Shown one piece after another: positions 2,101-52,968 of a stretch of DNA of 64,000 nt. How positions within the stretch are numbered: position 1 is the first letter of the stretch; each line of letters opens with the position of its first letter. The position numbers were made by a program, and so were the translations under genes. The DNA is from Dictyostelium discoideum. Lineage: Eukaryota. The stretch is taken from contig CM000152.2 of NCBI GenBank assembly GCA_000004695.1, forward strand, positions 1,728,001 through 1,792,000, in the 5' to 3' direction. Under the pieces are notes generated by a model, which saw only the letters and a program-made list of their open reading frames with translations, made no database searches and was not told the DNA's origin.

Positions 2101-2457
2101 TAATCAAAAAATAAAAATAAAGAAAAAAAAAAATAAAAAATAAAAATAAAAATAAAAAAAAAAAAAAATAAAATAAAAATTTAATTTTCGATGGTCCCTG
2201 GGCAAATCCATAACCGAATTTTTTAGGTTTTGTGTGAGTTTTTTAATATTTTCATTTTCTTTTTTTTTATTTTCACTTTTTTTATTTTTTATTTTTTATT
2301 TTTTTTTTCTAAGCAAGAGTTATTATTAGTAACCATTCCAATACGTATGTTAATTACAACACATTAATTGTTTATAATTTTTATTTTTATTTTTATTTTT
2401 TTTTTTTAATTGTTTTTTTTTTTTTTTTTTTTTTCTTTTTTTTTTTAAAATTAATTT

Positions 2458-2488
<31 letters not shown>

Positions 2489-3084
2489 TTAATTTGTTTT
2501 ATTTCATTTTTTTTAAACACACTATGATTGTGTGAAATAAAAAAAAAAAAAAAAAAAAAAAACAAAAATAAATAAAAAATAAAAATAAAAATAAAAATAA
2601 AAATAAAAAAAAAAAAAAAAAAAAAAAAATATATCCAGAGCTAGACAAAATGCTTTTGACAGTGTGATATCAGCAACTGAAAATATCCGCCAACGCTTTT
2701 TTTTTTTTTTACTTTTTTTTTTTTTCTATTTTTTTTTTATTTTTTTTATTAATTTTTTCTATTTTTTTTTTTATTTTTTTTTTGGTGTTTTTTTTTCTTT
2801 TTTTCTGTTATTTATTACAATCAATTTAATCGTTCATCAGCCTATAAATCGTATATATCCAAAGAAATATTGTTTACATTTTAATATAAATATCAAAAAT
2901 TATATATCATATAAAATATTAATATCTTTTTATTTATATCTTAAAATAGGTGTTTAGAAAAAAAACAAAAAAAAAAAAAAATAAAAAAAAAAAAAAAAAA
3001 AAAAAAAACAAAACAACAAAACACAATTTTTTAAAATTTTTTTTTTTATTTTTTTTTTTTATTTTTTTTTTTTAAACCAAAGAT

Positions 3085-6000
3085 ATGGGTAAAGAAACTA
3101 AAATCGATAAATTTGAAAAAAGTAAATATAATAAACGTTACAATGAACCAAATGATCCTTTAGAAATCGATTATATGAGAGGTTATCAAACAACCACACT
3201 CTCAAATATTTTACATTATGGTTTAATTATATTATCAGCAGGTAATGTATAATTTTTCATCATCATCATCATTATTATTATTATTGTCATAAAAATCAAA
3301 ATTTTAATATATTTAATAATTATTATTATTATTATTATTATTTTTATTTTTATTTTTTTTTTATTTATAGGTTTATTATTATTAGTTTATCATTGGGTAC
3401 CAAGATGGGGTATTAAAATGAGATTTAAAGAATGTAAATTAAATGATGCAAATTATGTTTATGTTAAAGCAAAAGATAAGAAATATGAACTTAGTCAAGT
3501 GAAACATGTATTAATTGGAAAGAAAGATTTAGAATTTTCAGAAAGTGAAAAGAAGGATAAATATATTGAATTCAAATTCACTCGTTTATTCTATAATGTA
3601 GAGAAAGATTTATTCATTAGACCAATTAGTAACACTGATTATCATAGAAGTAAAATCAATGAATTGGTGAAGACCGGTTTATCAATGAATAAATATCAAG
3701 AGGGTAGAGATCTTTTTGGACCCAATTTAATTAGTGTGCCATTGAAATCAATTCCATCATTGTTGTTAGACGAGATTTTACATCCATTCTTTATCTTTCA
3801 AATTTATTCAATCATTCTTTGGTGTACAGAAGATTATTATGTTTATGCAGGTGCAATTCTTTTCATTGCTTTGGTTACTGCCATTTTCACATTACGTGAG
3901 ACTCGTAATAATCTCTTGCGTTTAAATGAGATCGCCACCTATAGATGTGATGTGACAGTGTTAAGAGATGGTAAACTTCAAGTGGTATCCTCAGAGACAT
4001 TGGTTCCAGGTGATATTATCGAAATTCAAAAATCATTGGTACTTCCATGTGATTTTTGTTTATTAACTGGTACTGTAATTCTCAACGAGTCAATGTTAAC
4101 AGGTGAATCGATCCCAGTTACAAAGTATTCATTGGAGGAGTGTTCAGGTGATCAATTGTCTGTGGACCCATTGGTGAATAAACGTTGTGCAATGTCTGGT
4201 GGTACAAAGGTTGTTAAAACTCAAGCCAAAGAGAAGGATGCTAAAATCTTTGCAATGGTTACCAATACAAGTTGGTTAACTACAAAGGGTGGTTTGGTAT
4301 TGTCAATGTTGTATCCAAAGGAATCTCATTTCAAATTCTTTGAACAATCTTTGAAATTCTTGGGTGTACTTTGTTTCATTGCATTGATTGGTTTCGGTGT
4401 TTCAGTATGGAGATTAATTAAAGCAGGCGAACAATTAAGTGAGGTAGTTACCAAAGCATTGGATTTAATTACAATTGTTGTTCCACCAGCTTTACCAATG
4501 GCACAAAGTGTTGGTACAGGTTTCAGTATCGTACGTTTAAAGGCAAATAAAATCTTTTGTATTTCACCACCAAGAGTTAATATGGCAGGTAAAGTTGAAG
4601 TCTATTGTTTCGATAAAACTGGTACACTCACTGAAGATGGTTTAGATTTGTTTGGTGTATTACCATCCCATCAAGATAGTAATAATAGTGGTGGTTTTGG
4701 TACAGTAATTAAAACCGATTTAAATCGTATGACAGGTCCATTATTTTTAACAATGGCCACCTGTCATACTTTGGCTCATATCGATGAACAAGTTAGTGGT
4801 GATCCATTGGAAGAGAAGATTTTCACTGCAACAAATGCAAAGTTAAATGATAATGGTGAATTTGGTTTTTGTGCATCAATTCAATTGTCAAAAGTTGATA
4901 ATATCTCTATGGTTCATCAAGAATATCCAATCTCTACAGTGGATGTTGAAACCTCTGATCAAATTGCATTGGTTGAACGTTTCGAATTTCAATCTGCACT
5001 TCAAAGAATGAGTGTTGTAATTAGAGGTATTAGAGCAACCGATGGTTCAACTCAAAGTAGTAAAGATTTGGCAATTGTTAAAGGTTCACCAGAGATGATT
5101 AAAAAACTTTCAAATCCAACTTCAATTCCATCCGATTTTGAACATGTTCTTAGCACCTATACAAAGAAGGGTTATCGTGTATTGGGTTGTGGTTATAAAG
5201 AATGGGATCCATCAGATTCAATTGGTAAAACAAAGGATGAAATTAGATCAATGGTTGAGAGAGATTTAATGTTTTTAGGTTTCATTATTATGGAGAATAA
5301 AATTAAACCAGAGACTGCTGGTGCATTAAAGGTATTAAAGGATGCAAATATTCGTATCATTATGGTCACTGGTGATAATGTTCTAACCGCAGTTAGTGTT
5401 TCAAGAGAATGCGGTCTAGTCACTAAAGAGAAAACAATATTCTCGTCACAATTGGTTAATGATCCTGTAACTGGTAAACCAACAATGGTAGAATGGTTTG
5501 ATGTTACCTCACCTGAAGAATCAATTCCATTCACTTTGGACCCATACACTTTAACAATTAATAATGCTGGTGGTGGCAGTAATTACGATGATGAGTATAG
5601 TTTGGCTGTCACTGGTGATGTTTGGAAATATTATTATGATCAATTCAAAGCAAATGGTCAACCAACCATTTGTTTCAATCAAATCTTAAGAAAAGGTCAA
5701 GTGTTTGCACGTATGACACCAGATCAAAAACAAAATCTTATCGAGGAACTTCAAGTATTAGGACTCTATGTTGGCATGTGTGGTGATGGTGCAAATGATT
5801 GTGGTGCATTAAAAGCTGCACATGTTGGTATTTCTTTATCTCAAGCTGAGGCATCTATTGCCGCTCCATTCACTTCAACCATTACCAATGTAACTTGTAC
5901 CTATAATCTAATTAAAGAGGGTAGAGCATCATTAACAGTGTCATTCAAACTTTTCCAATTCATTGGTATGTACTCATTGATTCAATTTTGTCAAGTTATT

Positions 6001-6690
6001 CTATTGTATTTCGATGGTTCCGTATTGAATAACTATCAATATCTCTATCAAGATCTTTGGGTAATTTTCCCATTGGTAATTTTCATGGGTCGTACTGAAC
6101 CATGTAGTAAACTCTCCATCAAAAGACCATCCTCTCGTTTAATTAGTTCAACAGTTATTGGTAGTTTACTCAGTCATGTCACATTAACATTTGTTTTCCA
6201 ATTATTGGTTTACATTTTCGTACGTCGTAATTCATGGTATAAGGATTTACCCGACACAAGCTCCAATGAAAATGAACCAAGATTAGATCATTTATTGGCA
6301 TCCCTTTTCATCTATGGTAATATGCAATACTCTGTCATGTGTTTCATTTACTCTTGGGGTAAACCTTTCCTTAGACCAATTTATACCAATCGTGCATTAT
6401 TCATCTTCTTTTGTGTAACACTTACAACTTCTTCATTATTATTATTGTTGCCTGTTTCCATTAGATTCTTTGGTACAACATGGTTAATGGATTTACCAGT
6501 ACGTTGGAGAGTTGAACTCTTAATTCTCTTTATTATCAATGCTGCTCTCGCTATGGCTGCCGAATGGATTATCATTGTCTATCGTGAAATCAGATCAAAA
6601 TCAAAGAGAAAATTAAAACAAAAACAAAATTCCGATCCAAATATTATTGCAAAAAATACTGTTAATGAAAGATATACTAGTTTAAATTAA
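3085..6690 (+). CDS. P5B-type cation-transporting P-type ATPase (ATP13A2-like, kil2 family candidate), 1158 aa; exons 3085..3241 and 3371..6690
   Basis: Exon 1 from ATG 3085 ends in phase 1 before GTAATG. The 129-nt AT-rich intron ends in TATAG. Exon 2 continues in frame through the long ORF to the stop at 6690. P-type ATPase motifs are read directly: DKTGTLT, MVTGDN, GDGANDCGALK. The PPALP motif marks subtype P5B. Multiple hydrophobic membrane segments. The ORF-track Met at 3418 is internal. Confidence 0.85.
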
Positions 6691-6897
6691 ATTTTAGTAT
6701 TTAAAAAATTATTAAACAGTATAATAATAAATAAATAAAATAAAATAAAAATAATAACAATAAAATATAAGATCATTTTTTATTTTTTTTTTTTTTTTTG
6801 GTCAAAAACTGGACTTGTTTTTTTTTTTTATTTTTTTTTTTATTTTTTTTTTTATTTTTTGGTTTATTTTTAGTTTTTCATTTTTCAACAAAACAAA

Positions 6898-7165
6898 ATG
6901 TCAAACAAAAATGATTTAAAAGAGTTGATGAAAGCTAAAACTAAAGAAAGAGAGAAGAATTTATTATCATCACAACAAACAACAAATAGTTTAAATACAT
7001 CTACTACCAATAGTAATAATGATGATGGAAAACAATTTGCAAAGTATAATAGTCAAAAACAATTATTGTGTTCTTTATGTGAAGCAAAAGTATTAAGTGA
7101 TTCAATGTGGAAAGCTCATTGTAACTCTAAAAAACATAAAGAATTACTAGAAGTTTATCGAAGAA

Positions 7166-7260
<95 letters not shown>

Positions 7261-7426
7261 GATAAAAAGAAAAGAGAATTGGAATTTTTAATTACAGAAT
7301 CACAACCTTCCAAAATAATTAAGACAACAGAAGAAGAGGAAGAGGAAGCCTTAAAAGAAGTTTCAACAATAAGTAGTTTATTTGGTGCTTATAGTGACGA
7401 AGATGATGATGATGATAATAATAATA

Positions 7427-7477
<51 letters not shown>

Positions 7478-8319
7478 TTGAAATAAATTCGAAAAATAAT
7501 AGTTTTCCAAGTGGTTTTTTTGATAATCCAGAAGAAGAAAAAAAATCAATTATAAACGATGATTCAGATTTAGAGGTTAATGATAAATTACCAAAAGGAT
7601 TCTTTGATAATGATAGTATAAGGAAGAATGAAGATATTGATAAAGAAGAAATCGATGAAATAACAGAAGAGGAATTAAAGTAAGTTTTGTTTCAAATAAA
7701 AATTAAATTTTGTTTTGAATTTAATTAATTAATAAAATTGGTTGATATAGTACTAATGCAAAAAAAAAAAAAAATAAATAAATAAAATAAAAATAAATTA
7801 ATTATTAAAATATTTACTAGTAAACAACTTGAACAATATAATAATAATATTATTGATTCCACAACTACAACTATTGTTGAAAATGAAAATGATTATATTA
7901 TTAATAACGATAACAATAATAATAATAATAATAATAATATTAATAATATTGAAGAGGTAGATGATAAAAATAGTTATAAAGAAGAAAATGTTAATAGTAA
8001 TAAAGAACAACAACAACAAGAACAAGAACAAAAGGTAGAAAAAGAAGAAAACCTAATAAAGAAAGTTGATAAAAAAATAAATGAAAATGTTTTAATTGGA
8101 CGAGTTTTGAATAATTTTGAAAAAAAGGTTTTAGAATCAAAAATTGATGAACTTGAAAATAAGAGAAAAGATTTGAAATTAATGATTCATTCAAAAAATA
8201 ATATTAATGAAAAGGAGAACAAAAAAGAAGAAAGTGATGACGATGGTGATGATGATTTTAATTTCGATGAAGATGTCCAAATGTTGGACACTAGATCAAT
8301 ATTTCAAAAAAAGAAATAA
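6898..8319 (+). CDS. ZNF830-like C2H2 zinc-finger coiled-coil protein; exons 6898..7679 and 7821..8319 (short unspliced form would stop at 7683)
   Basis: The N-terminal block FAKYNSQKQLLCSLCEAKVLSDSMWKAHCNSKKHKE matches the ZNF830 single C2H2 finger region. A poly-Q tract is encoded by (CAA)n. The stop TAA at 7681 overlaps a consensus GTAAGT donor starting at 7680. A 141-nt AT-rich intron ends ...TTTACTAG at 7820. The downstream sequence is open in the required frame (phase 2) through 8319, encoding a K/E-rich coiled-coil tail. Confidence 0.55.
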
Positions 8320-44731: not shown

Positions 44732-45593
44732 TATGTAAATTTTCTATTAAAAAAACCAAAAATATTAATAATGTAACAAGATATGTTATAAAAACTTCAA
44801 ACTATAATAGATTTCGTCATAATAAAATTTAATAATTAAATTAATAAAATTTAATTAAATTAATAAACAGATGCCCAAATTTAAAACAAAAGTACCGATT
44901 CTACTAATTTTTATTATTTTAAACAGATGTCCAAATTTATAAAATTTAATTTATTTTATAATCTAAACCTATCAATTCGAAATCCTTACTAAAAATGATG
45001 TATTCAATTTTATTCTTACATTTTTAAATTTATTTGAAGTTTAATGGATTTAGATACTAAAAGTGTTAATAAAAAAAAAATCAAAAAAAAAAATTACTAA
45101 CATTTTATATAATTAAACTGAGAACTTTTTTGGGGTTACTTTATTTTTTTTTTTTTTTTTTTTTAAAAAAAAAATACAAGTGTCAGGGCTTGAAAAAAAA
45201 AAAAAAGATCTGGATTTTTTTTGGTGCCACTTTATTTTTTTTTTTTTTTTTTCTAAAAATAAATAAAAGTGTCAGAACCTTTTTGAAAAAAAAAAATCTG
45301 GACCTTTCAATTTTTTCAGGGAAATTAATACTAAAAGTTAAAGTTTATTGCTATATGAAATTATTTAAACACTGTGCCAAAACTAAAATAAAAAAAATAA
45401 AAAATATAAAAAATAAAAAATATAAAAAAATAAAAATTAATAAATAATATTAATAATCATTAGAATTTTTTTTTTAAGTTTTTTTAAATTTAAAAAACAT
45501 TAAAAATGAACAAATAGTTTATGGAATAATACTAACAATATTTTTTTAATTGAGTAGATTTCATCGAAATTTCGATACCTTATGACAAAGACA

Positions 45594-45667
45594 TGTGCCT
45601 GAAGGGTTTCGATCCCATGACCTATTGATTCGAAGTCAATCGCTCTTCCGAACTGAGCTACAAGCAC
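45594..45667 (-). tRNA. tRNA-Arg (anticodon UCG), 74 nt
   Basis: Reverse complement GTGCTTG-TA-GCTC-AGTTCGGAA-GAGC-G-ATTGA-CTTCGAA-TCAAT-AGGTC-ATGGG-ATCGAAA-CCCTT-CAGGCAC-A folds as a cloverleaf. The 7-bp acceptor stem contains one G-U pair. D stem is GCTC/GAGC. The 5-bp anticodon stem is perfect and the anticodon loop has U33 and A37. The T stem has one T-T mismatch and the T loop is ATCGAAA rather than TTCGAAT, so it could be slightly degenerate. Confidence 0.7.
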
Positions 45668-45682
45668 CTTGGCTTCATGGTG

Positions 45683-46542
45683 TGTAATAAAGCTTGTTAG
45701 CTTTATAAATATATAATTAATAATTATATAATTGAATAATACTTTGTTATCTTTATTTAATATTAGTTTATATTTATAATATTCAATATTGTTTATAAAA
45801 TTATTCTTTAGTATTTATATTATTCATAATGAGTTGACAGTATTATTATTATTATTATTATATTATTTAAATGTGTGTCAACTATAATTAGTAATGTAAT
45901 ATGCATATTTAATATCTATTAATTTTATAGAGTAACTTTATTACATATCCCCCCCTTTTAGTTGAAAAAAATTTTTCAATCTTTTAATATAAAACACATC
46001 ATGATTTTTAATATTATCCAATACTAATTTGAATTTTAAATCGCTAACTCTCTCATGTACTTTGAAAAGACCTTCCCAAGATTTATTGAGCTTTACTGGA
46101 CCAACAGTGGATTGTAAATAGACATAATCTCCTACTTGAATATTTGAACGAGAAACTTTTTTATTAATTTGTGATAATTGGTCTTTACCAAGATTATCCT
46201 TAATGAGACAAGGACGTTTGAGGTTATTATTAACAATTTGAGCGAAATTATGAGCAAAATCTAATCTTGATAAATTTGTACATGGATTTCTTATTAATGG
46301 TTGAATTGAGGTTATTTGTGATTTAATTATTGAATTCTCTGTTTGATTTAATGATATTGATTTTAATGGTAAATTTGATGTTATTGGTGAATCTATTGGT
46401 TCTTGGAATAAGAATTCTGGAATATCGTAATCTATTGGTAGTTGTTCTTCAATAGTTGGATACGATTTGATTGATAGTATATGATGAGAATTAAAATTTT
46501 CAATTAAATGATCAGTATCTGTTAATAATTCTGATTTTGATG

Positions 46543-46594
<52 letters not shown>

Positions 46595-47869
46595 TGAATA
46601 ATCAGATACTGTTTTAAATATAGTTTGTATACATGGTTGGGTTTCTTTAGATATTAATTTGGTACCAACATTGAATTCAAGATTCTTAATGATCATTTCT
46701 TTAAAATCAATGACTAAATTTAATCCAATTATTGTATCAATGCCAAATATACAATCAATTGATGTATCATTATCTTTAACAACATTAACTTTAACTCTAG
46801 CGAATGCTTTACCTAATTTAATTGTTGTGTTACTTATTCCAATGATTTCGATTTGATTATTTGATGCTGATTTAACAGAATATTGTTTATTTTCAATCTT
46901 TAATTTTAACTTTTTAGCAATACTTTCCCAAACAATAGTAAGTGATGAACCAGTATCAATCAAACCTCTAACATTTTTATTATTTATTAATAAAGCTGCA
47001 TTCATACTATCTATTCCAATTGAATTAATTGTACTATTATTGACCATTGTAATTGAATTAGTTCTATTATTGTAATTGTTATTATTATTTTTATCTTTTG
47101 ACCAACACTCTTGAATTACATGACCTTTCTTTTTGCAATATTTACAAAATTTTGTGATTGAATTTACTTGATTTTGTGGTGCTTTATAAGGGGATGATTG
47201 TGGTGACATTTGTGGTGATCGATTATAATATTGATTTTTAAAAATTGGTGTTGAAATTTCTTCAGATTCAATTGATTGTTGTTCGTTTTGAGATGTAACA
47301 TATTGAGGGGATGTTGCAGAATAACCCGAACCCGAACCTAGATATCTTTGATTACCAAATTCTTGCAACGTCTTTGCAACTAATTGACCAGTGTACATTG
47401 ATCTACCTTTGATACGAATTGAACCATCTTCACAAGACTTTGCAATATCTATTGCTCTTTTTAATGATTTTGGTGCACATTTTGTAATTTTAATACCCAA
47501 TTCAGTACCAACAGCTGAATAAAACAATTGTATTTTAAACTTTTCTGAAATATCAACTGCTGAACATTTTGATAGAAATTTACCAATTAATATATCTAAT
47601 GTATTGTATTTATATTCTCCCAACTTTGTTAATTCTGTTAAATCATCACTATCACCAATATCAAAAGCATCTTTAAGATCTTCAATTATCTCCATTGCTG
47701 TTAAGTCTGTATCCAATGTTGCGGCATATTCCAATGCATTGTTTCTTAGTTTTCTAATAATATCAGCTTTCGATATTTCCTCGCCATGAATTAATAAGAG
47801 TAAGTGTTTGAATTTACGAAATGATAAACCTTTTCCATCACCCGAAAAAATTACGTTTTCATTATTACT

Positions 47870-47956
<87 letters not shown>

Positions 47957-48333
47957 TATTAAATTAAATTTAATCTAATGTAAAATTTTAATTGATTGAA
48001 TAATTTGATAACTTTATATTTATAGTATATTTTTTTTTTTTTTTTTTTTTTGAAAGACGATGTCGCCAAATGTAATAAAGCTTGTTAGCTTTATAAATAT
48101 ATAATTAATAATTATATAATTGAATAATACTTTGTTATCTTTATTTAATATTAGTTTATATTTATAATATTCAATATTGTTTATAAAATTATTCTTTAGT
48201 ATTTATATTATTCATAATGAGTTGACAGTATTATTATTATTATTATTATATTATTTAAATGTGTGTCAACTATAATTAGTAATGTAATATGCATATTTAA
48301 TATCTATTAATTTTATAGAGTAACTTTATTACA
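45683..48333 (-). mobile_element. DGLT-A-like Ty3/gypsy LTR retrotransposon, internally deleted (2.65 kb), minus orientation, 15 bp upstream of the tRNA-Arg gene; LTRs 45683..45945 and 48071..48333
   Basis: Two 260-263 bp direct repeats begin TGTAAT and end TTATTACA. They are identical except for one tat unit in an internal (tat)n run. A primer-binding site TGGCGACATCG lies immediately internal to the upstream LTR (reverse complement of 48051..48070). A polypurine tract AAAAGGGGGGG lies immediately before the downstream LTR (reverse complement of 45946..45960). The flanking GGTG is duplicated (a 4-bp target-site duplication). The internal ORF has a gag CCHC knuckle and a DTGS protease. Confidence 0.8.
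45941..47872 (-). CDS. Retroelement gag-protease-integrase C-terminus fusion ORF (643 aa), lacking RT/RNase H/integrase core
   Basis: CCHC zinc knuckle CKYCKKKGHVIQEC. Aspartic protease LIDTGSSLTIV. The C-terminal block GDYVYLQSTVGPVKLNKSWEGLFKV...HDVFYIKRLKNF resembles the gypsy integrase C-terminal/chromo-like region. There is no reverse-transcriptase motif anywhere, so this is an in-frame internal deletion. Confidence 0.7.
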
Positions 48334-50156
48334 GGTGTAATGAACGTCGTATTCCAATTCCTATGAAATTAAGTGTGGACACACCACTCACACCTGGAAT
48401 GTGAAGATTTTAAACCATCTACAAATTGCACTAGTAGCCAATTTAATAGCTATTATATTCGAAAAAATTTGGCACAAAAGAAACAAACTCATTCACGATG
48501 AAAAAGAAATAATAATTCACAGACAACAAGTAATACGTGAACTAATTAAAACACAAAGAGCTGCATGGGACAGGACACAAGCGGTTATAAACAAAACATT
48601 AAGAATCAAATCAAAGCAACGGCCAGAAGAACAAAATAAACTAGACTCACTAATCTCGCTAAAGCTATTACAATTTAGCAGACAATGGAACTCACCTCTT
48701 CACGCAATAGAACTTCCTAAACATCTCAAAAAATACAATAATTCACTCAGTACTTTCTATAAATAAATAAAAAAAAAAAAAAAAAAATAAAAAAATAAAA
48801 AAAAAAAAAAAAAAAACTTGGGAACCCAAGTTAATCAGAAAATTTCCAGATTTTTAACTTTTTAAAGAAAAATAAAAAAAATAGAAAGAAAATAAAATGA
48901 AAATCACAAACAACACCACAAATATTAAGCAACACAAATGCCTACAAAAAATAAGCGAAATTGTGGATAAAACTCAATTAAAAAAAAAACAATTCAAATA
49001 CGTCATAAACATCAATCACGAACCAGACGATAAAATAAAAAAAGATATAGAAAAAAGTTTGGACAAAAAAGATGTTTTAATCAAAAGTAATAATATAATT
49101 CAAAATTCGAAACAAAAAAAAAAAAAAAAAAAAAAAAAAAGGTAAACCAACCCCTCTTTTAGAGACCCTGTAAAAAAAAAAAAATAAAATAAAATGAGAT
49201 CTAGCATCTCAAGGAGAAGCAAATAATAATTGCGTTATCCAATTCAAAAAAAAAACAATTCCTATGAAATACTTTTGATAATTTGTATATACCTTATATA
49301 CTTGTGTTACCCTTGAACACAGAGAAATAATTAATAATAAATAATAAATAATAAATAATATTATATCTCTTATATAATATTATATGTAATAAAGTATAAG
49401 TTTTGTTTATGCACAATTTGGAATAAAACAACAATGAATTAATTTTTATTTTATTTACTATTTATACTAAAATTAATTTTACTAAAGAAACCGTTGGTTA
49501 AATTTCTGAGAATAAAGTAAGAATCTTGTATTTGACGTCTTTTCAGTAACAGATCTATTTCTATATTTGTATTTTACCAAGGATAAAAACTTTATATGTT
49601 AATTTATGTCGCTTAATTATTCGCGATTATTACACAAGTAAAGGACCTCGTATTTGGACTTCTATGAAATTATGAGGCTTGGCACATATTCTTCAAATGT
49701 AAATCTCACCTCAAAGACACTCAAACCTGCATTGATTACATTCAAGATAAAAGTGGGGGTTCCCAAATCACGTGGGGAGTGGAAATATTTGGGAACAAAC
49801 TGGATATTTCACTAACAGCCAACGCCATAGCTATAATCTGTGAAAGCATTTGGAGAAGAAGAAACAAAAGAATACACGAAGAAATCACTCTCAAAAAACT
49901 AAGAGAAGAAAAACCCAAACATCTATTAAAGAAAACGCAAGAAGCTGCCTTGGAAAGAACCAAAAACAACATATATAAATTAATAAGACAATCAAAAAAA
50001 GCAACAACGATTGAAGCAGCTAAAAAATTCAAATCCATCATCTCCTCTCAATTAGAAAGATTCAGAAAAAACTAGAACTCTCCTCTACACATAGTAACAC
50101 TTCCACCCAACCTAAACAAATATATAACATCACTCAACACACTCTATACCCTCAAC

Positions 50157-50202
<46 letters not shown>

Positions 50203-50545
50203 TATAAATATATAAAACTAATACCACCCGAAAAAAAAAAAAAAAAAAAGGGACCATTTTAAAATTAAAACCTACTATAATAAAATGAGATTAATCTCAA
50301 GAAGAAGCAACTCACAATTGCTTTATTCCATTCAAAAAAAAACTTCTATGAAATACTAATAATATTTTGTACAAACAGAAATAATTAACAAAAACGCACT
50401 ATTCAGTGAATGCTCAGGGTTATCAAAGGTTTCTTTATAAAATCGTTAACGTCTTTTCGGCTACATATCCATTTCTATATTTGAGTTTATCAAGGATGAA
50501 AACTTTATATGTTAATATATGTCACTTATTCATTCGCGATTATTA
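48334..50545 (+). mobile_element. Nest of non-LTR (TRE-type, tRNA-gene-targeted) retrotransposon fragments: two poly(A)-terminated ORF2 C-terminal fragments plus a recurrent non-coding module
   Basis: ORFs 48401..48766 and 49779..50075 are paralogous (IAIIFEKIWHKRNKLIHDE and IAIICESIWRRRNKRIHEE; the W-x-x-RN-x-x-IH motif is characteristic of LINE ORF2 C-termini). Each is followed by an A-rich tail (48767..48816 and 50160..50215). Each is then followed by a conserved module (AAAATGAGAT...CAATTCAAAAAAAAAAC..TCCTATGAAATAC at 49190 and 50283). Another shared block (CGTCTTTTC.G...CTTTATATGTTAAT.TATGTC.CTTAT...TTCGCGATTATTACA) occurs at 49535..49640 and 50445..50545. All lie upstream of the tRNA-Arg gene. 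Confidence 0.55.
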
Positions 50546-50590
50546 CATTCTCATTTAATTTATTAAATAATTATTTTTTTTATTTTATTA

Positions 50591-50639
50591 GACCTATTGA
50601 TTCGAAGTCAATCGAGCTTCTGAAATGAGCTACAAGCAC
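50591..50639 (-). pseudogene. Partial copy of the tRNA-Arg(UCG) gene (5' two-thirds, mutated)
   Basis: gacctattgattcgaagtcaatcgagcttctgaaatgagctacaagcac aligns to positions 1 to about 47 of the 45594..45667 tRNA with a few substitutions. The T arm and 3' acceptor strand are missing. Confidence 0.6.
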
Positions 50640-51088
50640 CAGGCTTTTCTCATTTAATTTATTAAATAATTATTTTTAATTTTATTTCAATAATCATAAA
50701 AAATATCATAAAATTGTTATATTAAAAAAAAATCAAATATAAAACCAATTAAAATTGTTATATTAATTATAAAAAAAATAATAATAAAAAATAATAAATA
50801 ATAAAAAAATTAAAAAATTTAATTACAATTTTCTGTGTGAAAGAAATAAAAAAATTTGTGTCGTAAAATTAATGTAAAAAAAAATGTGCAGAATTAATTC
50901 AACATTTCTGAATTTTATTTTTTAATAAGATTAACAATGATTTTATTTTTTTTTTTTTTTTTTTTTTTTTGGGAATATTAAACCAAACCAATTACAATCA
51001 CTATAAAATAAAATAAAGAAATGAAAAAAAAAAAAAAATAAAATAAAATCATTATTAATCTTATTAATTATATATATTATAAAAAAAA

Positions 51089-52968
51089 ATGTTTAATCAA
51101 ACTAAAATATTTTTATTTTTATTTTTGTTACTATCTTTATTTGTTTTTATTGGTATGGATAAATATTTTTTTTTTTTTTTTTCATTATATTTATTAAAAT
51201 GGTTTTAATATTAACAATGGGTTAATTTTTTATTTTAGATTGTTACCCATGCGATTATAATGTAGGTTGTGATGATGGAGATGAATGTACTGGTGATTCA
51301 TGTTCAATTGATAATTTATGTATAAATATTATTATTTCATGTGATGATAGTAATTTATGTACCAGTGATTCTTGTTCAAGTATAACTGGTTGTTCTAATG
51401 TACCAATTTCATGTGACGATTGTAATGCTTGTACCGTTGATTCTTGTTTGCCATTGATTGGTTGTTGTCATGCTCCAATGGTATGTGATGATTGTAATGC
51501 TTGTACAGTTGATTCATGTTTAAATTCAACTGGTTGCTGTCATACTCCAATAGTATGTGATGATTGTAATGCTTGTACAATTGATTCTTGTTTAAATTCA
51601 ACTGGTTGTTGTCATACTCCAATGGTATGTGATGATGGTAATGCTTGTACAAATGATGGTTGTTCAAGTGAAACTGGTTGCAATCATTTGCCAATTTCAT
51701 GTGATGATTGTAATGCTTGTACATTGGATTCTTGCTCACCAATTACTGGTTGTTGTCATAGTCAAATTTCATGTGATGATTGTAATGCTTGTACATTAGA
51801 TTCTTGTTCACCAATTATTGGTTGTTGTCATACTCAAATGGTCTGTGATGATGGTAATGCTTGTACAAATGATGGTTGCTCTGAAGAAACTGGTTGTTGC
51901 CATACTCCAATTTCATGTGATGATGGCAATTCTTGTACAAATGATGGTTGCTCTGAAGAGACTGGTTGTTGTCATACTCCAATTTCATGTGATGATGGTA
52001 ATGCTTGTACATTAGATTCTTGCTCCTCAACTACTGGTTGTTGTCATACTGCAATGGTATGTGATGATGGTGATGCCTGTACATTAGATTCTTGTTCACA
52101 AACTTCTGGCTGTTGTAGTTCACCAATTTCATGTGATGATGGTAATGCATGCACTAATGATGGTTGTTCAAGTGAAACTGGTTGTATTCATTTACCAATT
52201 TCATGTGATGATGGCAATGCTTGTACAAATGATGGTTGCTCTGAAGAAACTGGTTGTTGTCACACTCCAATTTCATGTGATGATGGTAATGCTTGTACTA
52301 ATGATGGTTGCTCTGAAGAGACTGGTTGTTGTCACACTCAAATTTCATGTGATGATGGTAATGCTTGTACAAATGATGGTTGTTCAAAGGAAGATGGTTG
52401 TATTCATTTACCAATCTCATGTGACGATTGTGATGCCTGTACAGTTGATTCTTGTTCAAATGAAGATGGTTGTATTCATTTACCAATTTCATGTGACGAT
52501 TGTGATGCTTGTACAATTGATTCTTGTTTAAATTCTACTGGTGGTTGTTGTCATACTCCAATTTCATGTGATGATGGTAATGCTTGTACAAATGATGGTT
52601 GTTCAAGTGAAACTGGTTGTAATCATTTACCAATTTCATGTGATGATGGTAATGCTTGTACATTAGATTCTTGCTCACCAACTACTGGTTGTTGTCATAC
52701 TCCAATTTCATGCGATGATGGTGATGCTTGTACATTAGATTCTTGTTCACCAACTTCTGGCTGTTGTAGTTCCCCAATTTCATGTGATGATGGTAATTTA
52801 TGTACAATTGATTCCTGCTCACCTTCAACTGGTTGTTGTCATACTCCAATTTCTTGTAATGATCTCAATATGTGCACCATTGATTTCTGTCTCCCAAATT
52901 TTGGTTGTGTTCATAGATTAAGACCATCATGCCATAACTATAACGAAATTGGTATTAATATAAATTAA
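51089..52968 (+). CDS. Secreted cysteine-rich protein built from about 20 tandem 24-aa Dicty_CTDC-type repeats (C-x-D-x-N-x-C-T-x-D-x-C-x4-GC-x-H-x-P-I-S), 597 aa; exons 51089..51152 and 51239..52968
   Basis: Exon 1 encodes the signal peptide MFNQTKIFLFLFLLLSLFVFI and ends in phase 1 before GTATGG. An 86-nt intron ends TTTTAG. Exon 2 is in frame with the long ORF. The repeat CDDGNACTNDGCSEETGCCHTPIS recurs with near-identical 72-bp DNA units. Minus-strand ORFs (HNHLYKHY repeats) are artefacts of the periodicity. Confidence 0.75.

Follow-up and report, generated by a model that had tools for sequence, protein, structure and literature searches.

Gag-retaining, pol-less long terminal repeat (LTR) retrotransposons mobilised by an autonomous partner are known from barley (BARE-2/BARE-1) and rice (Dasheng/RIRE2). 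In Dictyostelium discoideum, the retrotransposon DGLT-A has a 5054-bp consensus with 265-bp LTRs, a polypurine tract (PPT) at the right LTR and a single open reading frame (ORF), which contains a Gag zinc knuckle of the type CX2CX4HX4C and lacks a chromodomain; it inserts 13–33 bp (mean 15) upstream of tRNA genes (Spaller et al.). The polyprotein has 1437 amino acids (aa; Kling et al. 2018), the length also of the database entry Q9GQ51, and has been mapped into reverse transcriptase (RT, 419–742), RNase H (733–879), integrase N-terminal domain (IN-NTD, 994–1147, including an N-terminal extension, IN-NED, 994–1067), integrase catalytic core (IN-CCD, 1148–1313) and integrase C-terminal domain (IN-CTD, 1314–1437) (Kling et al. 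2018). RNase H and IN-NED bind the tetratricopeptide repeats 7/8 of the TFIIIC subunit Tfc4, and this binding was proposed to position the intasome (Kling et al. 2018). Twenty DGLT-A insertions have already been counted in the AX4/AX2 lineage, and none of the nine AX4 copies with internal sequence is full-length (PMC5006619). Here, we analyzed one such copy next to a tRNA-Arg(UCG) gene in a 64-kb stretch of D. discoideum DNA (contig CM000152.2, positions 1,728,001 to 1,792,000; called the window below, with coordinates counted from its first letter). The insertion itself, a described element that follows a known targeting rule in a reference genome, is already known. The comparison with other loci led us to conclude that this copy very probably belongs to a lineage of 2.6-kb non-autonomous DGLT-A elements, which was short before insertion and was presumably mobilised in trans.

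The integration target is the tRNA-Arg(UCG) gene on the minus strand (45594–45667). ARAGORN called it, as tRNA-Arg(tcg), as the sole tRNA gene of the window, and it covered the full Rfam model RF00005 with 62.9 bits (gathering score 29), confirming the assignment in an initial annotation that had been made from the sequence alone. A spacer of 15 bp (45668–45682) separates the 5′ end of the tRNA gene from an LTR element of 2651 bp on the minus strand (45683–48333), delimited by its LTRs, primer-binding site (PBS), PPT and target duplication. The tRNA-proximal 3′ LTR (45683–45945, minus strand) and the 5′ LTR (48071–48333, minus strand) are direct repeats of 263 bp, begin with TG, end with CA and are 100% identical over a gap-free alignment. 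The length and termini given in the initial annotation were thus correct, and the difference of one (tat) unit that it had described between the LTRs does not exist. A 30-mer from the LTR start occurs only twice in the 64 kb, once in each LTR, against 0 occurrences expected by chance. Among copies at other loci the LTR length varies from 256 to 268 bp. Identical LTRs of 263 bp give little time resolution and the mutation rate of the organism is very low; "recent" is a relative term for this insertion.

The element is bounded by the target duplication GGTG, one copy of which forms the last 4 bp of the spacer (45679–45682) and the other follows the 5′ LTR (48334–48337). The duplication comprises 4 bp, with a mismatch at the fifth base; a single 4-mer match has a chance of ~1/256, and private 4-bp duplications were found at five other copies as well. 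The PBS TGGCGACATCGTCTTTC (48052–48068, reverse complement, minus strand) starts 2 nt (TT) past the 5′ LTR and is exactly the published DGLT-A PBS, and the PPT AAAAGGGGGGG (45949–45959, reverse complement, minus strand) ends 3 nt (ATA) before the 3′ LTR. The 15-bp distance, the GGTG at both outer junctions and the placement of PBS and PPT for a minus-oriented element had all been recognised in the initial annotation and hold. Assembly GCA_054883475.1 (probably AX2; CM142509.1, ~1.86 Mb; L005) has the insertion at the corresponding locus, where it is 99.5% identical to the window across 14 kb and has an identical ORF product; the AX4 protein DDB_G0279931 is encoded exactly in GCA_054883475.1. 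The window thus almost certainly comes from the AX4/AX2 laboratory lineage of D. discoideum.

An RNA able to prime at the PBS would have the 3′ end ...GACGAUGUCGCCA-3′. When the window was searched for the PBS complement with up to 2 mismatches, the PBS itself was the sole match. Self-priming and a primer encoded nearby were rejected as candidates, as there was no second match to the PBS complement and the 3′ end of the tRNA-Arg mismatches the PBS.

Judged by its sequence, the element is the D. discoideum Ty3/gypsy retrotransposon DGLT-A, as originally proposed along with its orientation and its place in the tRNA-upstream targeting window. The PBS agrees letter for letter with the D. discoideum DGLT-A PBS and has the same 2-bp offset (PMC5006619), the LTR length of 263 bp compares with 265 bp in the consensus, and residues 1–418 of the ORF are 89% identical to Q9GQ51 (P0170) in BLASTP, with 2 differences in the first 260 aa. 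The PPT next to the right LTR, the TG...CA ends, the single ORF, the CX2CX4HX4C knuckle and the lack of a chromodomain match in the 643-aa ORF (Pfam) complete the agreement, as does the insertion site: 15 bp lies inside the 13–33 bp window, and the other short copies described below sit at 12, 14, 14, 14 and 28 bp. All published DGLT-A features are present here, save the length and the enzymatic domains. The other D. discoideum LTR families, Skipper-1 and Skipper-2/DGLT-P, are Ty3/gypsy elements too, and either could in principle have been the source of this copy. Skipper elements have a polypyrimidine stretch instead of a TGG PBS, two ORFs and a chromodomain, and Skipper-1 (LTR 390 bp) is centromeric while Skipper-2/DGLT-P (LTR 208 bp) inserts downstream of tRNA genes. 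With a TGG-type PBS that is DGLT-A's own, a single ORF, no chromodomain found, an LTR of 263 bp that fits neither 390 nor 208 bp, a site 15 bp upstream of the tRNA gene and a Gag-protease part 89% identical to Q9GQ51, the probability of a Skipper origin is negligible.

The interior of 2125 bp contains a single ORF of 643 aa (45941–47872, minus strand), which according to the ORF list, Pfam and BLASTP encodes Gag, protease, a linker remnant and an integrase C-terminal domain. It runs through the PPT into the 3′ LTR and ends at a TAA stop codon inside this LTR. The Gag zinc knuckle CKYCKKKGHVIQEC (aa 243–256; 47105–47146, minus strand) was read from the translation and is of the CX2CX4HX4C form named for DGLT-A (PMC5006619). 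An aspartic protease domain with the active site DTGS (aa 295–379; 46736–46990, minus strand) was detected by Pfam (PF13650, 42.5 bits; PF13975, 39.2 bits; Asp_protease_2, E=1e-10), and weak matches were obtained for zf-CCHC and SH3_Tf2-1. Downstream lie a remnant of the linker between RNase H and integrase (aa 467–526; 46295–46474, minus strand; BLASTP identity 36–50%, E=3e-4 to 2e-5) and a remnant of the IN-CTD (aa 532–636, corresponding to Q9GQ51 1323–1436; 45965–46279, minus strand; BLASTP identity 50%, E=9e-25, plus the weak SH3_Tf2-1 match).

Only three segments of the ORF have partners in Q9GQ51, namely 1–418 (1–424, 89% identity), 475–513 (885–927, 50%) and 532–636 (1323–1436, 50%). 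The same three-segment pattern was obtained against P0007, the polyprotein of a full-length element of 5051 bp from D. cf. discoideum (L006), whose domains are protease (290–374), RT (475–632), RNase H (695–818), HHCC (1062–1121), rve (1138–1234) and a C-terminus at 1387–1420; here the linker remnant matched aa 835–907. For RT, RNase H, HHCC and rve, there was no Pfam match in the ORF of the window copy. Two blocks of ~400 aa each are therefore missing, one with RT and RNase H, the other with the rest of the linker, the IN-NTD and the IN-CCD. The first deletion junction lies just upstream of the linker remnant (46295–46474) and the second just upstream of the IN-CTD remnant (45965–46279), and the open frame survives both deletions. 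The corresponding junction regions are at ~46460–46490 and ~46270–46300, respectively. There is a weak indication that aa 439–469 are a decayed remnant of the RT start (9/31 identities by eye, length collinear with P0004).

In contrast to the DGLT-A reference, the window copy measures 2651 instead of 5054 bp, lacks RT, RNase H, the IN-NTD including the Tfc4-binding NED and the integrase catalytic core, has an IN-CTD that is only 50% identical and has an ORF that continues through the PPT into the LTR. It is a deletion derivative of the DGLT-A family and not an autonomous member. The initial annotation had called the element internally deleted: the internal loss is real, but it consists of two deletions rather than one and these were not made at the tRNA-Arg locus.

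The closest database relatives of the ORF are D. discoideum 'hypothetical proteins' of 589–642 aa with the same architecture, and at least five further AX4/AX2-lineage loci (L001, L002, L010, L011 and L012) have the same short form between unrelated flanks. L001 (2594 bp) lies 14 bp from a tRNA-Ile(AAU) gene in opposite orientation and is flanked by TTTC, L002 (2618 bp, 94.6% identical to the window copy) lies 14 bp from a tRNA-Leu(UAA) gene and is flanked by CTAA, and L010 (2628 bp) lies 28 bp from a tRNA-Val(AAC) gene and is flanked by ACGG. L011 and L012 each have one LTR interrupted by a poly(A)-ended insertion; neither locus contains a tRNA gene, and in neither is the duplication readable. 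Each AX4/AX2-lineage copy with intact ends (window, L001, L002, L010) thus has its own 4-bp duplication and sits 14–28 bp upstream of a different tRNA gene. Two copies of 2.67 kb in a wild isolate (GCA_054859385.1) represent a second short subfamily with 76% nucleotide identity, L003 at 12 bp from a tRNA-Leu gene with the duplication TCCG, and L004 at 14 bp from a tRNA-Leu gene with the duplication CATA. Relative to the tRNA gene, four copies are co-oriented and two divergent. The window copy, L001, L010, L011 and L012 differ by 13–31 substitutions in ~2.6 kb (98.8–99.5% identity) and have both deletion junctions in common. Within the window copy, L001 and L002, the two LTRs agree at 100%, and those of L003 and L004 differ by just one indel. 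The frame is intact at 632–643 aa in seven of eight copies. In AX4, short copies are annotated as the protein-coding genes DDB_G0279931, DDB_G0271456 and DDB_G0277283.

This distribution bears on how the short form arose at the tRNA-Arg(UCG) gene. A full-length DGLT-A could have inserted there and lost its internal part later in place, and the AX4 literature, which says only that none of the nine copies with internal sequence is full-length, reads as independent decay would. We consider such a loss in place very improbable: both junctions and a near-identical middle segment recur at five or more further loci whose flanks are unrelated, the intact-ended copies have private target duplications, the frame is open in seven of eight, and the same breakpoints are not expected from independent deletions. 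Assembly duplicates of a single locus are excluded by the different tRNA genes and flanks. Alternatively, segmental duplication or ectopic gene conversion might have carried the short copies from one tRNA locus to another at the DNA level, and gene conversion between genomic copies could also produce the mosaic pattern in which the window copy and L002 diverge, described below. However, the homology between loci ends exactly at the LTR ends, every intact-ended copy has a different 4-bp duplication 12–28 bp upstream of a different tRNA gene, which is the signature of an integrase, and LTRs are identical within a copy, with 0.5–1.2% difference from copy to copy; spread at the DNA level is hence just as hard to credit as loss in place. 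Since the two-deletion form occurs at unrelated tRNA genes with private duplications, sequence comparison shows that short RNA must have been reverse-transcribed and integrated repeatedly after the deletions had arisen.

Because the same short form exists at at least five other loci, the molecule that was inserted at the tRNA-Arg(UCG) gene had been shortened beforehand and depended on another element for RT and integrase. We thus favor a scenario in which the short lineage retains what is needed in cis, i.e., both LTRs, PBS and PPT, and keeps an open Gag-protease frame fused via the linker remnant to the IN-CTD, while RT, RNase H and integrase would be supplied in trans by a full-length DGLT-A. 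The RNase H and IN-NED of this helper would dock on Tfc4 at the active tRNA gene, which would put the cDNA ~15 bp upstream of tRNA-Arg(UCG), in this case between the tRNA gene and a TRE5-type element that was presumably already present 47 bp upstream. As the short element has no intact RNase H or IN-NED, the targeting, too, would have to come from the helper. The PBS core TGGCGACATCG was kept in all copies compared and the PPT in all short copies, and both are shared with the full-length L006 (85% LTR identity), which is what mobilisation in trans requires. L006 itself (2406–7659) has identical 273-bp LTRs and an ORF with a single split into 421 + 1031 aa. The element is at least 2.6 kb away from any tRNA gene, and an inverted partial LTR abuts its 5′ end.

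This organization resembles BARE-2 and Dasheng, whose LTRs, PBS and PPT correspond to those of an autonomous relative, whose enzymatic domains have been lost and whose multiple copies have a common internal structure and their own target duplications. Unlike these elements, the short DGLT-A keeps the protease and a piece of the integrase C-terminus in frame with Gag, its family is small (at least six copies in the AX4/AX2 lineage), its helper is not in the same genome assembly and its mobilisation in trans is inferred. A further comparison is offered by yeast Ty3, likewise gypsy-type, which differs in having two overlapping ORFs and in making 5-bp target duplications, as opposed to 4 bp in all six intact-ended short DGLT-A copies. 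Both elements integrate a few bp from the RNA polymerase III start, ~15 bp upstream of the mature tRNA 5′ end, but the Ty3 integrase contacts TFIIIB, whereas RNase H and IN-NED of DGLT-A contact TFIIIC via Tfc4 (PMC6101501).

Several observations weigh against a short lineage mobilised by a full-length helper. When the RT-integrase part of P0007 served as query, AX4/AX2 yielded no full-length DGLT-A protein, and from AX4 only the partial DDB_G0286503 was obtained; all full-length proteins in this search belonged to D. cf. discoideum, D. citrinum or a single wild D. discoideum isolate. Likewise, no full-length DGLT-A copy has been reported in AX4 (PMC5006619, PMC5633606). Because no helper was found in the AX4/AX2 lineage, the step in trans is deduced rather than demonstrated. 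The primer for the DGLT-A PBS has not been identified (PMC5006619), and the middle segment that was retained, only 36–50% identical to the full-length protein, is too diverged to give the breakpoints with nucleotide precision. Moreover, among the five young, ~99% identical copies, 17 nonsynonymous and 9 synonymous changes correspond to an omega of ~0.49 that is not significant (one-sided p = 0.07), and the low ratio of nonsynonymous to synonymous substitution rates (dN/dS) of Gag-protease between the subfamilies, given below, could come from full-length ancestors. The full-length element P0173 of the wild isolate was considered as the parent of the second short subfamily and rejected, as its Gag-protease is only 35% identical.

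When the window copy was compared with L002 and with L003, Gag-protease had a dN/dS of ~0.2 in either pairing (Nei–Gojobori estimates); the values for the IN-CTD and the middle segment were ~0.5 and ~1.1, respectively. Functional retention of the short ORF is no more than a possibility. The Gag-protease-IN-CTD protein might be kept by selection as a capsid acting in cis, through interference with the full-length element or after takeover by the host. It would fit this idea that 632–643 aa remain open in seven of eight copies despite the A+T-rich genome, that the low Gag-protease dN/dS separates two subfamilies that are both of short architecture, and that AX4 annotates several copies as protein-coding genes. 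On the other hand, omega in the young family does not fall significantly below 1, evolution of the middle segment is neutral, the window group has a strongly diverged IN-CTD, with the GPF motif changed to GLF and the natural stop codon lost, and intact frames may just mean a young age. We regard selection on the protein as a tentative explanation that is rather doubtful. Similarly speculative is the extended proposal that the 2.6-kb form is a distinct, self-perpetuating lineage that makes up most of the DGLT-A copies with internal sequence in AX4/AX2, the helper of which has since been lost and the ORF of which is kept for its own Gag-protease.

The window copy and L002 are mosaic: dS between them is 0.11 for Gag-protease, drops to 0.013 in the middle segment and reaches 0.61 in the IN-CTD, and the divergent patches are sharply bounded. 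The IN-CTD of L002 is identical to that of Q9GQ51, in contrast to the diverged IN-CTD of the window group. The mosaic and the split in the IN-CTD point to recombination between DGLT-A lineages, as would be expected from co-packaged RNAs. Compared with the short-form ORF, Q9GQ51 shows its 2 differences in the first 260 aa, after which identity falls to ~75%, and its IN-CTD is that of the short copy L002. The published DGLT-A consensus may have been assembled in part from short-form copies.

The addition to the existing picture is modest: the 'incomplete' DGLT-A copies of AX4/AX2 are largely one propagated mini-element with two deletions and a Gag-protease-IN-CTD frame and not random wrecks. The words deletion, deleted, truncated and non-autonomous are absent from Spaller 2016, and the Spaller/Kling literature describes the AX4 copies only as 'not full-length', with no shared propagated short form; Glockner et al. 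2001 may mention one. A propagated short form would mean that DGLT-A activity and a helper persisted after it arose. It would also mean that tRNA targeting can be conferred wholly in trans, as the short form is without RNase H and IN-NED, both reported to bind Tfc4. A DGLT-A retrotransposition assay is lacking (Kling et al. 2018), and tagging the short form, which is a natural mini-element, could help to set one up. If the self-perpetuating lineage is real, such an assay could be obtained by pairing a tagged copy of the short element with a full-length DGLT-A of a wild isolate or of D. cf. discoideum.

Upstream of the DGLT-A copy lies a 5′-truncated TRE5-type non-LTR retroelement (48370–49255, plus strand), flanked by a 15-bp duplication CAATTCCTATGAAAT (48355–48369 and 49256–49270). 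It reads away from the tRNA gene and finishes at 49255 with an A10 tail; its other parts are an open ORF2 tail, an internal A-run and a 3′ module. It begins 47 bp upstream of the tRNA gene once DGLT-A and one GGTG are removed; TRE5 is known to insert ~50 bp upstream of tRNA genes (PMC5006619). The TRE5 label is based on position, target duplication, poly(A) tail and multicopy matches and not on a family profile, as Pfam yielded nothing useful for the TRE-like ORFs of the window. The multicopy matches lie at other tRNA loci, and the same 3′ end cuts the DGLT-A LTR in L012. We place the arrival of the TRE5-type element first and that of DGLT-A second, because a later TRE5 would have landed inside the LTR, as seen in L012. 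In L011 (~2583) and L012 (~5145), a poly(A)-ended TRE is inserted 18–19 bp inside the LTR, the expected landing site of a TRE5 that aims ~48 bp upstream with DGLT-A already present.

Further upstream, the region 49530–50550 contains a second, diverged (65–86%) TRE5-like ORF2 tail with a poly(A) run, which is bounded by CTTCTATGAAAT (49660–49671 and 50341–50352), and a 103-bp repeat occurs twice (49532–49634 and 50446–50547). This arrangement suggests that the tRNA-upstream region was duplicated long ago and that the duplicate received a TRE insertion of its own. It is followed by a 49-nt 5′ fragment resembling tRNA-Arg(UCG) (50591–50639, minus strand) without T-arm and B box, which matches the real gene at 50/57 positions when 5 nt of upstream flank are counted and is flanked by the direct repeat CTCATTTAATTTATTAAATAATTATTTTT (50550–50578 and 50650–50678). 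On the other side of the DGLT-A copy, 15 nt downstream of the 3′ end of the tRNA gene, a B-box-like motif GGTATCGAAAT (~45560–45580, minus strand) lies inside a short palindrome and resembles the 'external B box' that many D. discoideum tRNA genes are reported to have. Finally, a gene at 51089–52968 (plus strand), unrelated to DGLT-A, encodes a secreted-looking protein of 597 aa with many Cys-rich CDDxNxCTxDxC repeats, the underlying internal DNA repeats being ~80% identical to one another.

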